A stretch of DNA of 44,382 bases, taken from the NCBI GenBank assembly GCA_050740655.1, contig JBOIDW010000127.1, positions 1 to 44,382 of the forward strand. The letters run 5' to 3'. The position numbers were made by a program, and so were the translations under genes. Shown piece after piece: positions 38,733 to 44,273 of the stretch. How positions within the stretch are numbered: position 1 is the stretch's first letter; every line of letters begins with the position of its first letter. The notes under the pieces are model-generated. The model made no database searches. It worked only from the letters and a program-made list of their open reading frames with translations, and had not been told where the DNA came from. Source of the DNA: Gammaproteobacteria bacterium (GTDB lineage: Bacteria; Pseudomonadota; Gammaproteobacteria; JACCXJ01).

Positions 38733-41700
38733 ATGATAAATCGTACCTGTGTCTGCAATTTTACGGTGTTTATCCTGGTGTTCTGTTGCGCCGCTCGGGG
38801 CGAGGAGATCCGGGACTTTTACGCCGAGCCGGGCCTCAATCCCTTCAAAGAGACGCTGAACCAAGACCTCAATGAGCATATCGATCCCTTCTCGGGAACG
38901 CTGCAGCACAGCCATACCGACCTCGTTGTCCCAGGCAACGGCGGCCTCGACATCAAGGTAACGCGCGTCTACACCAGTCCGCAGAAACACCTCGGTGTCC
39001 GCACGGTGACCGGCGCGAACTGGACCATGCATTTCGGCCGCTTGGTCGCGCCGACCGCACACAAGGATAAGCTCTGCGCGCAAGACACCTACAATGCGCG
39101 CACGGAAGACAATCCCTCCATCGAGTTCCCCGACGGCGGGCGCGAGCTGCTGGTGCTGGATGCCGTCCACGGACAATACCTCGTCACCAAGAGCGGCTGG
39201 CGGGCGACGTGCAATGCCGCGGGCCAAGGCCTGGTCGCGACCTCGCCTTCAGGCGTGAAGTACACGATGGACGCGCTCAATACGCTGAACAACCACTGGA
39301 GCTGGTATACGACGCGCATCGAAGACCGCCATGGGAATACGATCGATGTCGTTTACAAGACGAACTCATGGAATTTCATCTACGTCGATAAGATAACGGC
39401 GAGCGACGGCCGGCTGGTGCAATTTCGATACGAGGTCGAAGATACCGAAAACGTCCGGCTCAAGGAAATCAGCGCGAACGGACAAACCTGGCACTACCGT
39501 TACGAGCACGTCGATACGCCGGAAGGGCTGAATTATTACCATCTGGCCGAGGTCGTACGACCGGATGGCCTGAGCTGGAAGTACAGCTATTACCCTTACG
39601 ATAGCGCAGCGGATGCCGTCGGCAACTATGCCATGCGCTCGGTGACGTACCCGCATGGCGCGAACATCGTTTACAGCTATCAGGAGGTCGACTTCGATCC
39701 CTCGGACGTCGACAACCAATGGGATGAACCGACCACGGTGATGGCGACCAAGAGGGTGGCCGGCCGATTGCCGGGGACGTACGTCGGCGATCCCGACCCG
39801 TCCTTCCCAGGCGGTGAATGGCGCTTCGAGTACGAGCCCGAATCACCGGAGCTGTTTACCACCAAAGACGGCACCTTGGCCTCTGGTCTCGATAAGACCA
39901 CCGTGTACATGCCCGGCGGCAAGCAGGTTTACCTCCACTATGGGTTCTCCTACACGGGCGGCCCGTCCAGCGGCATCTTGTGGATCACCGGCATGCCGTA
40001 TCAGCAAGAGAACTACGATGGCAATTGCGGCGGCGGAACCAGTGTAGGGGGTGCCTGCCGCCTGATAGAGTCGATCTACAACGACTGGGCCCCACGCTTG
40101 ATATCCCAGGAGGACTACTGGCACGGCCGGGCGGCATCGGAGGACGATACCTACGCGGCGCAGCTTATCGGCCGGGTCCACAACCGCGACGATAACGGTC
40201 ACCGGACGGATTACGAAGACTACGATGACCTGGGCAATGCCCGCAGGGTCGTGGAAAAATCCAATCTCGGGGATGCGGACAAGGTGACGCGGCTCAGTTA
40301 CCGCATCGACAAGGCCAAATGGATCGTGCACCAGGTAGAGGACGAGACCGTCCTCGGGCCGGCCGGGGAAATCGTGAGCCACGTCGACCGGACATTCAAC
40401 AGCGATGGCGATCTGACTAGCGAGAACAAGAACGGCGTCTCCACCGCCTATGCGTATACCCCACAGGGCGATCTGGAAACCGTGACCGATGCACGCTCGA
40501 ATACCACCACCTACGCCAACTACAAACGCGGCATTCCCCAGCTTGAACGGCACCCGGAGTCGGTCACCTTCTCCCGCGTCGTCAACGATACCGGGACTGT
40601 CGCGTCTCAGACCAACGGCCGGGGTTACACCCGCAGCTTCAGCTACGATGACCTAAACCGATTGACGGACATTACCTATCCGCTCAATTCACCGGTCGGC
40701 ATCGTCTGGGGTGCGAGCGGCAAGACACTCACCCGCGGCAACTATCAGGAGCGTATCGATCTCGATGGCTTCGGCCGGCCGATCCGCACGACGCGGCAGG
40801 ATACGGTCTCAGGGGTGCAGATCACCCGCACCACGCGCTACGACGTACACAGCAATATAATCTTCGAGTCTTATCCTAATTCCGAGACCGGCGTGAGTTA
40901 TAGCTACGATACGCTCAAGCGGCTTATCGAACTCCAGCACCCGGACGGGGCTCGCCGCACCTATAGTCATGACAGCCCGCAGGTGACGGAGACCGATGAG
41001 CGCGGTAACAGCACCGTATTCCTCTACCGATCCTACGGGGCGCCGGACAAAGACAAGGTGCTCCGGGTGCTCACCTCGCCGGAGAACCTCTCCACCGTCC
41101 TCGCCTACGATCAGCTCAATCATCTGACCAGCGTCTTTCAGGGCGAGAGAGACCCGACCGATGGATCCTTGTCCGGCCTATACCGCAGATTCGGCTATGA
41201 CGCACGCTTCTACCTCACCTCGGTGCAAGATCCAGAGACCGGCGTCACGGCGTACAGCCGCGACGCGCTGGGCAACCTGATCTCCCGCCAGATCGGCGCG
41301 TCCGGGATCACGAACTACACCTACGATGGCCTGAACCGCCAAGTCTATGCCGATTATCCCGGCGCAACCCCGGATGTCTCCACACGTTACGACGCAGATA
41401 ACCATGTGACGCAGATAACCAATGGCAGCAGCGTCATCGATTATCTCTACGACGAGAATGACAACCTCAGGAGTCAGAACCTGAGCATCGGCGCCGTCCT
41501 CTATCCGCTCGCCTTTACCTACGACCAGCATGATTTTCTGAGCGCGATGAGCTATCCCTCGGGCCGGAGCATCGAGTATCGCCCGGATGCCCTCGGCCGG
41601 CCCACTCGGGTGGCGCCTTATGTGAGCACCGTGAGCTATCACCCCGGCGGGCCACTCGCGCAATTCAGCCACGTCAACGGCCAGGTGACCGACGTCGCCT

Positions 41701-44273
41701 TGAACGAGCGGCAATGGGTAGGCGAGATCCGCCACCAGGGGCCGGGCGGTGCGGCCGAGTTGAATTACGGATACGATCCCCTCGGCAACGTGCGCAGCAT
41801 CACCGACGTGCTCAACCCCACCGAGGACCGCGGCTTCGACTACGATGCCCTGAATCGCCTCACCGGTGCCCAGGGCCGCTGGGGCGCGGGCGGCTTCGCC
41901 TATGACTTCTTCGGTAATGTAACCGAGATGGTCTCGGGCGCGAACCGGCACCGATTCACCTATAACGCCCTCAAGCTCCAAAGCGTCATCCACAACGATG
42001 CGACCCGTTCCTGGTACGCCCACGATGTCTACGGCAACGTACGGGCCGACACCGAGCTCGTTGGGCTCGATACGGTCGGGCAACTCCTCAAGCGGCAAGA
42101 ATACCTGTATAACGATGTCGGCCAGTTGCTTCAGGCCACCGAGCAGACGCGCGATGGGAGTGGGGATCACTTCCGCCACCACGACTTCGACTACGACGCT
42201 GCCGGCAACCGCATGCGGCGCACCGACCCTCAAGGCCAGGTGACCGACTTCGTCTATGGCCGCACCGGTCAACTGCTCGGTGAATATACCGGTGCGCGGC
42301 AGTTCGGCAAGGAATATATCTACCTCGGGGCTCAGCAGGTCGCGAGCGCCCAGACCAACCGGCCTCCGGTGGCCGATGCCGGTACCGATCAGCGCGCCGG
42401 TGACGGCGCGACGGCCACGCTCGACGGCTCGGCCTCGCGAGACCCGGACGGGACTATCGCGCGGTACGCCTGGACGCAGATCTCGGGCGCGCCGGTCGCG
42501 CTCTCGGGCGCCAATACCGCTACCCCGAGCTTTACCGCACCACTCGTGGCGGGTAGCCTCGGATTCGAGTTGACGGTCACCGATAGCGACGCTGAGACCG
42601 GTACGGACAGGGTCACGATCACCGTGTATGTCAATCAACCGCCGGCCGCCAATGCGGGGGCCGATCAAAGCGTGCTGGGTGCATCCACCGTTACCCTGGA
42701 CGGATCGGCGTCCAACGATCCAGAGGGTGACCTACTGACGTACCGATGGCGGCAACTGAGCGGCGGTACCGTCACGCTGACCAACGCAACCAACGCGCAG
42801 GTGCAATTCAAAGCGCGCAACGCCGCGGAGACGCTGCAATTTGAACTGACCGTCACCGATCCGCTGGGTAAATCCTCCGTTGACACAGTGGACGTGCTGC
42901 TGACGGTGAATCAACACCCGGTTGCCATCAGCCCTAATGTCAACGCCCGGTATGTCCGTACCGTTACCTTGCACGGTGACGGCTCCTACGATCCGGAGGG
43001 AACGCCGCTGCGTTATTTCTGGTCGCAACTCGTGTTCCCGGGCGATCCAGCCGTCGTCTTGACGAGGCACACGACCGCCGATCCGACGTTCGTGGTGCCG
43101 AAGGTGACCTCTGATTGGACTCTGCGTTTCAAATTCACCGTATGGGACGTTCAGGAGCTGAATCACTCGGTGAACGTTCTGGTTACAATCGGTCCGAACC
43201 ATGCCCCAACGGTCAACGCCGGGGCGGATCTTTGGATTAGCGGCCTGAATACCGGCTATTTATACGGCCAGGGTGCCGATCGCGATCTCGACACTACCCT
43301 AAACCTGGATTGGCGACAGATCGGCGGTTCACCCGTCACGCTGACGCCCCTGCCGAACAGTGATCCCTGGATGCGCTTCTTTATTGCGCCGTTGGCCGCC
43401 GCGGATCAAACGCTGGTGTTCGAGCTGAAGGCGACCGATCCCGAAGGCGCCGCGGGCAAGGATACGCTCGAAGTCTTCATCCGCGCCAATACCGCGCCTA
43501 TCGTCGATCTCGGACCCGATCAAGGAGCTACACCGGGCACGCTCGCTACGCTGAATGCCAACATAACGAGTTACGAGCCCGAGGTCTTGCAATACGCCTG
43601 GCGACAACTCTCCGGCACGCCGGTGACGTTGAGCGGCGCCGATACGCCTCAGCTCGGCTTTACCGCACCCACGACAGCGGGCGAGACCCTCGTGTTCGAA
43701 CTGACCGTGACCGATACGCTGGGACTGACGGGCAGCGATACCGCAAACTTTACCGTCAATGCCGCGCCCAGCGCCCAAGCCGGGCTCGATAGGAGTGTCA
43801 ACGGCGGCGCGGCCGTGACCCTGGATGGCAGCACCTCCCGCGATCCGGAAGGCGGCGCACTGAGTTACGCTTGGCGGCAGATCTCCGGAGTCACCGTTGC
43901 CCTAGCCAATCCGGCGACTGCCACAGCCTCGTATAAAGCGCCGTATGTCGACAGCGCGACGGCCCTGGAGTTCGAACTCGAGGTCACTGATCCGCTCGGC
44001 GCCGCCAGCACCGACTTCGTGCGAATCACCGTCAATCGTAACACCGTGGCCGGTGACAAGATCGCGCCGCGCTCAACGCTAACCCGCCTCAACTACGGCA
44101 AGATCCGCATCACGGTCAACGAGACCTCTAGTATCTATGCACAGATCGTCGGTGTGCGGCCCTGGTGGATTTACAATGCGACCTTCCCCACTACCACCCG
44201 TGAGACTGTCGAGTACTATGCTATTGATCGGGCCGGCAACCGGGAAACACTGCGCCGCTATGTGACCCCCTGA
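38733..44273 (+). CDS. 1846-aa secreted YD/RHS-repeat protein with six C-terminal PKD-like domains and an AGN-x-E beta-sandwich-like tail. No Rhs core or toxin domain detected
   Basis: AAGGAG (38719-38724) lies 8 nt before ATG 38733. The hydrophobic N-terminus is [23 protein letters not shown]. The Rhs N-terminal-type motif is [30 protein letters not shown]. More than 20 YD repeats are present (for example [56 protein letters not shown]) up to ...[13 protein letters not shown] at about 42345. The six-repeat array of about 92 aa per unit is listed separately. The tail is ...[15 protein letters not shown]. Confidence 0.9.
42357..44042 (+). repeat. Array of six tandem PKD-like (PKD/K319L-type Ig) coding repeats inside the giant gene
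   Basis: Unit boundaries are at 42357, 42633, 42909, 43197, 43488 and 43758, ending at 44042 (270-291 nt each). Each unit starts N-x-x-P and carries ...AG.DQ......V.LDGS.S.DP(D/E)G..L.Y.W.Q.SG..V.L......FTAP......L.FEL.VTD..G...D.V.I.V. Units 3 and 4 are the most divergent. Confidence 0.85.

Follow-up and report, generated by a model that had tools for sequence, protein, structure and literature searches.

In the 44,382-nucleotide stretch of gammaproteobacterial DNA analyzed here (contig JBOIDW010000127.1 of assembly GCA_050740655.1; the window), the open reading frame (ORF) at 38733..44273 probably encodes the shell subunit, or carrier, of an Rhs polymorphic toxin that is made from two genes and exported via Sec. 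The ORF encodes a predicted Rhs/YD cocoon that passes directly into a stalk of immunoglobulin (Ig)-like domains, and the Rhs-associated core, which would close the cocoon, begins in a separate gene immediately downstream that is cut by the end of the contig. This split design recurs in dozens of proteobacterial genomes.

The shell protein and the gene that follows it

The features of the two genes are as follows; all signal peptides, here and in the related loci described below, were called by a hydrophobicity heuristic and inspection, not by SignalP.

38733..44273, plus strand: shell gene, 1846 amino acids, ATG start, TGA stop at 44271-44273
38733..38801, plus strand: Sec-type signal peptide of the shell protein (amino acids 1-23), with a hydrophobic core, followed by the family-conserved mature N-terminus EEIRD...
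Amino acids 50-80 of the shell protein: Rhs-type N-terminal motif IDPFSGTL...
38802..42344, plus strand: predicted Rhs/YD beta-cocoon shell (amino acids 24-1204; RHS_repeat and YD_repeat_2x matches, AlphaFold2 and Foldseek)
Amino acid 1204 (nucleotide 42344): end of the last shell strand
42357..44036, plus strand: six K319L-type PKD (Ig-like) domains (amino acids 1209-1768; PF22352 and KIAA0319L matches, models), with units starting at amino acids 1209, 1301, 1393, 1488, 1585 and 1676
44037..44273, plus strand: C-terminal 78-amino-acid beta module, or tail (amino acids 1769-1846; stop TGA included)
44277..44382, plus strand: start of a predicted core-toxin gene (AGAGG ribosome-binding site, ATG at 44289, 31 codons, cut by the contig end)

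The shell gene has an AAGGAG ribosome-binding site 9 nucleotides 5' of the ATG at 38733. A longer in-frame start at 38484 is probably unused, as the translation from it looks out of frame and runs across a small ORF, read in another frame, that is the better candidate. In Pfam, K319L-like_PKD (PF22352) matched six stretches of the ORF (E value = 4.7e-85, 280 bits versus a cutoff of 27), RHS_repeat (PF05593) also matched six stretches (E value = 3.7e-32), and PKD_4 matched as well; NCBIfam added YD_repeat_2x (TIGR01643). DUF6531, at amino acids 48-103, stayed under its Pfam cutoff (21.0 versus 24.1 bits). Sequence searches of the Protein Data Bank (PDB) matched the PKD array to the PKD domains of KIAA0319L/AAVR, and M36-peptidase matches in NCBIfam, confined to the PKD region, were far under their cutoffs. 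Neither Pfam nor NCBIfam profiles placed the core families TIGR03696 and PF03527 or any toxin family inside the 1846-amino-acid ORF, and Pfam gave no match in the ORF to SpvB, TcdB-mid, FG-GAP, NHL or Tox-GHH, nor to PAAR, VgrG or a prePAAR N-terminus. The shell region (38802..42344) is common to more than 100 homologues.

The predicted structures gave the same layout. With 40 homologues, AlphaFold2 modeled amino acids 25-1215 as a nearly all-beta fold of ~88 strands (predicted local distance difference test [pLDDT] = 88.9, predicted template modeling score [pTM] = 0.82). The top PDB matches of this model in Foldseek were the Rhs containers 8qja, 8qjd, 8qjc, 7q97, 8uxt, 8cp6 and 7pq5 (E values from 1e-44 to 1e-39), followed by TcdB2-TccC3 (4o9x, TMq = 0.68) and then by teneurins; together, the Rhs, TcBC and teneurin cocoons matched at E values from 1e-44 to 1e-29. 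The model thus indicates that the shell region is a real Rhs cocoon. The C-terminal 652 amino acids were modeled as Ig-like domains in a row, similar to contactin, protocadherins and GhpA, confidently for PKD1-2, PKD5-6 and the tail and poorly for PKD3-4. The 78-amino-acid tail was modeled, again confidently, as six beta strands. Foldseek results for the entire C-terminal model were dominated by PKD/Ig domains and yielded no family for the tail, Pfam and PDB sequence searches returned nothing significant for it, and NCBIfam gave one weak OmpL47-type match (E value = 0.022). Homologues also end in the tail motif ...EYY.xD..G..; P0006 and P0011 share the tail at their C-termini, and it is visible in the consensus of alignment A4.

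These results uphold the layout proposed in an initial annotation of the window, namely, an Rhs-type N-terminus, a YD shell and a direct switch into six PKD domains and a beta tail, with no core or toxin in the same ORF. That annotation had placed the end of the shell at about 42345, which matches the end of the last shell strand. Its figure of more than 20 YD repeats holds as a count of beta-hairpins, but strict Y.YD motifs in the ORF number only 5-6.

Downstream of the shell, 15 nucleotides containing the AGAGG sequence separate the TGA (44271-44273) from the ATG at 44289. The longest contig carrying the window protein has 44382 bases, so the window takes in all of it. The peptide encoded there, MKRLLLFLLTLCALHAQA-VERVIHYHNDALG, consists of a Sec-type leader directly joined to the start of an Rhs-associated core, and VERVIHYHNDALG is the YYHxDHLGS-type element for which the initial annotation had looked in the shell ORF. 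The last 14 residues of the fragment are identical to the protein at the related locus L001 (AVERVIHYHNDALG), and a hidden Markov model built from 68 core proteins of relatives matched the 31-residue fragment (E value = 3.4e-6). The shell TGA and the core ATG lie in the same reading frame in the window (44271-44291), which looks coincidental, since a shared frame is not conserved across loci. There was no terminator between the shell and core genes, and a promoter and terminator scan of 37200-44382 gave nothing above the shuffled expectation.

Shell and core-toxin genes in related genomes

A search of a library clustered at 50% identity with the family-specific N-terminal 420 amino acids of the shell gave 276 representatives (E value ≤ 1e-30), with full-length proteins of ~1150 to 4633 amino acids. 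The matches begin at residue ~22-30 of these representatives, and the relatives' shells likewise carry a leader followed by the conserved mature N-terminus. We scanned one genome per species with the shell alignment and obtained 80 loci (designated L), which belong to gamma- and betaproteobacteria plus one acidobacterial metagenome-assembled genome (MAG) and include Marinobacter, Exilibacterium, Microbulbifer, Cellvibrio, Thiodiazotropha, Steroidobacteraceae, Chromatiales, Acidovorax, Comamonas, Verminephrobacter, Methylovorus and others. We counted a locus as evaluable if its shell ORF was complete and was followed by 400 nucleotides or more of sequence (56 loci). A separate adjacent core-bearing ORF was present at 51/56 of them, shell and core were fused at 2/56 (L062 and L074), and the remaining 3/56 (L032, L041 and L057) were exceptions to adjacency. 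Tandem arrays of two to five core genes occurred at 13/56 loci, with five at L066. The spacing between shell and core genes ranged from -4 to about +110 nucleotides across beta- and gammaproteobacteria; both the size and the frame of the gap varied, and in our tally the gap was in frame at ~11/46 loci, below the one-third expected by chance. The split was also present in complete isolate genomes (Marinobacter CP184460, CP101118 and CP007152; Comamonas CP104377).

Two loci illustrate the arrangement with and without a stalk. At L001, the shell carries a PKD array and is 62% identical to the window shell, and at L002, in the complete genome CP184460 of Marinobacter sp. GH_1, the shell has 1153 amino acids and lacks the stalk. 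Both have a small gene ~20 nucleotides past the shell stop whose product starts like that of the window gene (L001 reads ...LLALPAGAVERVIHYHNDALGSPI), and both small proteins exceed the core cutoffs (PF03527, 38-40 bits versus 27.9; TIGR03696, 62.7 and 72.3 bits versus 32.5). Nearly all core proteins have a basic-hydrophobic-AxA leader immediately ahead of (V)TYYHNDALGSP. Moreover, shell and core distances co-varied over 46 loci (r = 0.75, Mantel P value = 0.001). In the closest relative, P0003 (85% identity; L085:10001-13920), the shell was called at 980 amino acids, and an overlapping ORF then extends as far as the contig does; the short shell may stem from a frameshift or from faulty assembly of that MAG, and the contig ends too early to show a counterpart of the downstream core gene.

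The core proteins of relatives have ~280-470 amino acids, of which the core portion accounts for ~110. Residues R83, R91, D96, D123 and G126 (L001 numbering) were invariant in 68/68 aligned core proteins, and D96 and D123 are the two aspartates of RFxxxDP...NNPxxxxDPxG. We take them to correspond to D651 and D674 of TccC3, the two catalytic residues of the Rhs aspartyl autoprotease. The residue after DPxG, canonically L, W or F, was R in 31, E in 12, N in 11, K in 4 and L in one of the 68 core proteins (alignment A3). The regions that follow DPxG are mostly 150-180 amino acids long and polymorphic, with matches to PT-HINT, Ntox10, Ntox24, Ntox47, Ntox8, Ntox50, HNH, Colicin_E5, Colicin_D, Tox-URI2, Tox-REase-7, ribonuclease and TreTu_C families. 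Within arrays, leader and core were 79-100% identical and the toxin parts 16-47% identical. ORFs that overlap the stop of a toxin gene (by -4 or -1 nucleotides) matched Imm8, Imm26, Imm33-like, Imm53, Barstar, SUFU and Colicin_immun. Polymorphic toxins joined to a conserved core and accompanied by immunity genes are the signature of an antibacterial polymorphic toxin system.

Many toxin regions open with a Gly/Ala-rich hydrophobic segment in the first ~60 amino acids after DPxG, seen in L001, L008, L010, L019, L039, L048, L054, L078 and L076, and the motif SPxDxxFxxxDxxKLGxA...SPxPGTGxxxK recurs ahead of unrelated toxin domains. A mean Kyte-Doolittle hydrophobicity of at least 1.6 over a 19-residue window was reached in 23/68 core proteins. 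The segment recalls pre-toxin (PT-TG-like) or membrane-entry modules; it matched no Pfam family at an E value of ≤0.001.

The two fused relatives locate the chain break. At L074, the C-terminus of the window shell aligns up to residue 1185 and the mature core aligns from residue 1193; at L062, the corresponding residues are 1128 and 1141. From this spacing of 7 (L074) and 12 (L062) residues, the break falls in a short loop that would join the last strand of the shell to the first of the core. Past the last shell strand, complete shell ORFs carry an extension of 0 to about 2500 amino acids built of PKD, HYR, PQQ-propeller, TSP3, Big or dockerin modules. Similar arrays occur on the other side of the break: at L047 (11268-14381) the shell has no extension and the cargo consists of a leader, seven Big_3_5 domains, core and toxin, and at L057 (13176-17501) and L052 (856-5115) FN3/discoidin or Big_7 arrays lie ahead of the core. 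Judged from these sequences, adhesin-like insertions gather at the junction loop, whichever side of the chain break they are on. With Ig-like arrays found at this junction on either chain, the PKD array of the window protein is best seen as an insertion there and not as a substitute for the core; nor does the stalk replace the core, because stalkless shells such as the 1153-amino-acid Marinobacter protein have the same partner gene. Furthermore, the core retains the strands that form the C-terminal seal in solved Rhs structures, so that the small protein would supply exactly that seal.

One of the exceptions to adjacency is a 3181-amino-acid family member from Microbulbifer aggregans (L032:7983-17528), whose ~1980-amino-acid C-terminal extension has TSP3-like and PQQ-type propeller repeats and many Ig-like units. 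No core gene lies within 2 kb downstream of it, and a 377-amino-acid secreted protein is encoded there instead.

Proposed assembly, rival explanations and genomic setting

In the mechanism that we propose, both chains would be exported unfolded via Sec, the core would dock into the shell in trans and enclose the toxin, and the core would then cut the toxin off at the DPxG site. At multi-cargo loci, a single shell could be loaded with alternative cargoes. The PKD stalk would emerge at the shell/core junction and might serve in surface or target binding, and the likely purpose of the whole would be antagonism between bacteria independent of a type VI secretion system (T6SS). That two chains close one cocoon draws indirect support from the break in the 7- to 12-residue loop and from the co-variation of shell and core. 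We rate the chances as about even for the fuller picture, in which a separate small protein seals the shell and so completes the cocoon once both have been exported, up to five tandem cargoes are available and the Ig arrays do the targeting.

Several points weigh against this reading. Assembly of the two chains in trans is what we infer from the sequences, and for the window gene itself the core beyond its 13 mature residues, and the toxin, are deduced from relatives. Three of the evaluable loci, named above, have no immediately adjacent core gene. The noncanonical residue after DPxG suggests that autoproteolysis, its chemistry or its site may differ or be absent, and the leader of the core proteins could be a membrane anchor instead of a signal peptide. 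In addition, an all-versus-all clustering of the ORFs in the 8-kb flanks of ~80 loci recovered only shell, core and antisense artefacts as recurrent neighbors, with no linked T6SS, type II secretion system (T2SS), PAAR, VgrG, TcA or chaperone genes that could account for delivery.

Some of these points would suit a reading in which the two proteins act independently, the small ones as bacteriocin-like toxins with the core as a cleavable pro-domain and the shell as a surface or adhesion protein in its own right. Both chains carry export signals of their own, the databases contain hundreds of short 'RHS repeat-associated core' proteins, many of unknown context, and the noncanonical residue after DPxG would be in keeping with it. 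We nevertheless regard independent action as unlikely, given that the two genes stay adjacent across beta- and gammaproteobacteria at the short spacings reported above, that the break falls exactly in the loop defined by the fused relatives, that the core keeps the seal strands of solved Rhs structures, that shell and core co-vary and that the cores of one locus are 79-100% identical despite their differing toxins. The initial annotation had favored an uncapped or empty shell tethered to an adhesin-like stalk; on this reading, the coreless shell would work as an adhesin-like surface protein with no toxin. The absence of a core or toxin domain from 38733..44273 and a C-terminal stalk of the Ig-like kind seen in adhesion molecules are what one would expect of such a protein, but the core starts 15 nucleotides downstream in the next gene (44289..44382), the order of shell, core-toxin and immunity genes is kept in 51/56 loci, and the stalkless Marinobacter shell has the same partner gene; we therefore hold the empty shell to be very improbable.

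Two further explanations concern the small genes themselves. They might be pieces of one rhs gene broken by a sequencing or assembly error or by a nonsense mutation, or the ORFs might be joined by readthrough or frameshifting. The shared frame of TGA and ATG across 15 nucleotides in the window would fit, yet the small gene comes with a ribosome-binding site, a start codon and a signal peptide of its own, the same split occurs in finished isolate genomes, and across loci gap and frame vary (~11/46 in frame), so that we give an artefact or pseudogene hardly any credence. Stop-codon readthrough or frameshifting in particular is ruled out by the variable gap and frame together with the own start and leader of every small gene. 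Orphan rhs genes are described in PMC7043789. The small genes resemble silent cassettes of this kind, which serve as recombination substrates in E. coli and Salmonella, in that their arrays combine near-identical 5' parts with divergent 3' parts and an immunity gene each; the shell gene, however, offers them no core sequence with which to recombine. Each cassette also has its own start codon and signal peptide, both of which, to our knowledge, the classical E. coli and Salmonella cassettes lack, and a silent-cassette role thus seems highly unlikely to us.

The full-text literature that we searched contained no description of a split Rhs protein with a separately secreted core-toxin protein, and an earlier description elsewhere is possible. 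If the fuller picture outlined above is correct, it would represent a modular way to build and deliver Rhs toxins independently of both T6SS and TcA. The family would also define a Gram-negative Rhs class independent of T6SS. A shell that can be rearmed with interchangeable cargoes, in a family of 276 clusters at 50% identity, would be of interest for toxin-delivery engineering. A practical lesson for annotation is to look for a core gene downstream of any 'coreless' RHS-repeat protein before labeling it an adhesin.

The module adjoins rne, rluC and sppA, downstream of a nusA-infB-pnp block, and the contig looks like an ordinary gammaproteobacterial chromosome. In different genomes the module lies in different genomic neighborhoods. 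There was no tRNA, integrase or repeat near it, the only tRNA of the window being at 15235. The initial annotation had noted more A/T-ending codons in the shell gene and had considered horizontal acquisition on that ground. Neither is supported by the codon counts: GC content at third codon positions was 0.76 for the shell gene, within the 0.74-0.84 spanned by the window's other real genes, and its lower overall GC content came mostly from codon position 1, which reflects amino acid composition. Recent horizontal transfer is thus not supported by composition.

One further ORF lies upstream of the shell gene:

38393..38671, plus strand: small upstream ORF, 92 amino acids, with a signal-peptide-like N-terminus, a Pro-rich basic low-complexity body and the end ...PRKHRR

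It has an AAGGAG ribosome-binding site at 38378-38383 and an ATG at 38393, and it matched no family in Pfam and NCBIfam. Homologous 90-amino-acid ORFs lie directly 5' of the shell gene in L001 and L007-L010, with a similar one in L005/L006, and some signal-peptide-bearing small ORF, poorly conserved in sequence, is found upstream in 38/59 loci (also in Marinobacter, Halieaceae and others). This ORF probably opens the module. The ~1 kb between the sppA-like gene and this ORF (37319-38392) contains only GC-rich overlapping ORFs that look spurious, with no convincing ORF, tRNA or Rfam match.

Comparison with known Rhs and Tc systems

By its predicted structure, the window shell belongs to the Rhs/YD cocoon superfamily, whose repeats fold into a beta-cocoon. 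In the usual view, an Rhs protein is a single chain whose cocoon folds around the toxin at its own C-terminus, and Tc cocoons arise in the cytoplasm from two large half-shells; a separately exported plug and toxin would raise the question of how the toxin is encapsulated after translocation. The window ORF differs from canonical single-chain Rhs proteins, which carry the core at the end of the same polypeptide, and it shows none of the marks of teneurins (FN-plug, NHL and ABD/Tox-GHH), which were also weaker structural matches than the bacterial Rhs proteins. It does carry a K319L-type PKD array of tandem PF22352 domains, with a putative binding role, and toxin and immunity genes are found in the related loci.

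The best structural matches to the shell model were T6SS Rhs effectors (RhsA of P. protegens, 7Q97; Tse5, 8CP6; Tse15, 8UXT; Rhs1, 7PQ5; S. bongori and Advenella Rhs, 8QJ*), which have core motifs and polymorphic toxins in common with the system described here. Each of them, however, is one chain that starts with a PAAR, VgrG or clade domain, lacks a signal peptide and is linked to T6SS genes; none of this applies to the window protein, which has a Sec-type leader instead. The tandem orphan rhs-CT/immunity cassettes of Enterobacteriaceae likewise share a conserved piece of the core at the 5' end and diverge in their toxins and immunity genes, but the cassettes here are complete genes with a start and a signal peptide, and the main gene is without a core to exchange.

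Closer in their export are the Rhs polymorphic toxins of the Sec/T2SS class, with a signal peptide and RHS repeats, listed by Zhang et al. 2012 (PMC3482391), of which B. subtilis WapA is an example. As in the system described here, they have an N-terminal signal peptide and not PAAR or VgrG, polymorphic C-terminal nucleases, downstream immunity genes and extra cassettes, and adhesion-type domains may be embedded near the toxin module. In their published description each is one polypeptide, accompanied by standalone cassettes that are silent, whereas here shell and core-toxin are separate genes, each with a leader.

The Tc BC complexes (TcB and TcC; TcdB2-TccC3 of Photorhabdus, 4O9X, and YenB/YenC of Yersinia) share with the window system its division into two separately encoded polypeptides, a second chain that bears the core autoprotease and the variable toxin, and several cargo genes per shell partner. 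In Tc, the split is mid-shell and TcC gives ~650 amino acids of wall, whereas here the second chain gives only the ~110-amino-acid core. The shell ORF also lacks the SpvB and TcB beta-propeller domains, the second chain is no half-shell, and there is no TcA gene nearby; unlike in Tc, both chains have Sec leaders, and the toxins and immunities are of the antibacterial polymorphic-toxin type. The TcB/TcC pair is nevertheless the closest functional analogue of the window system.

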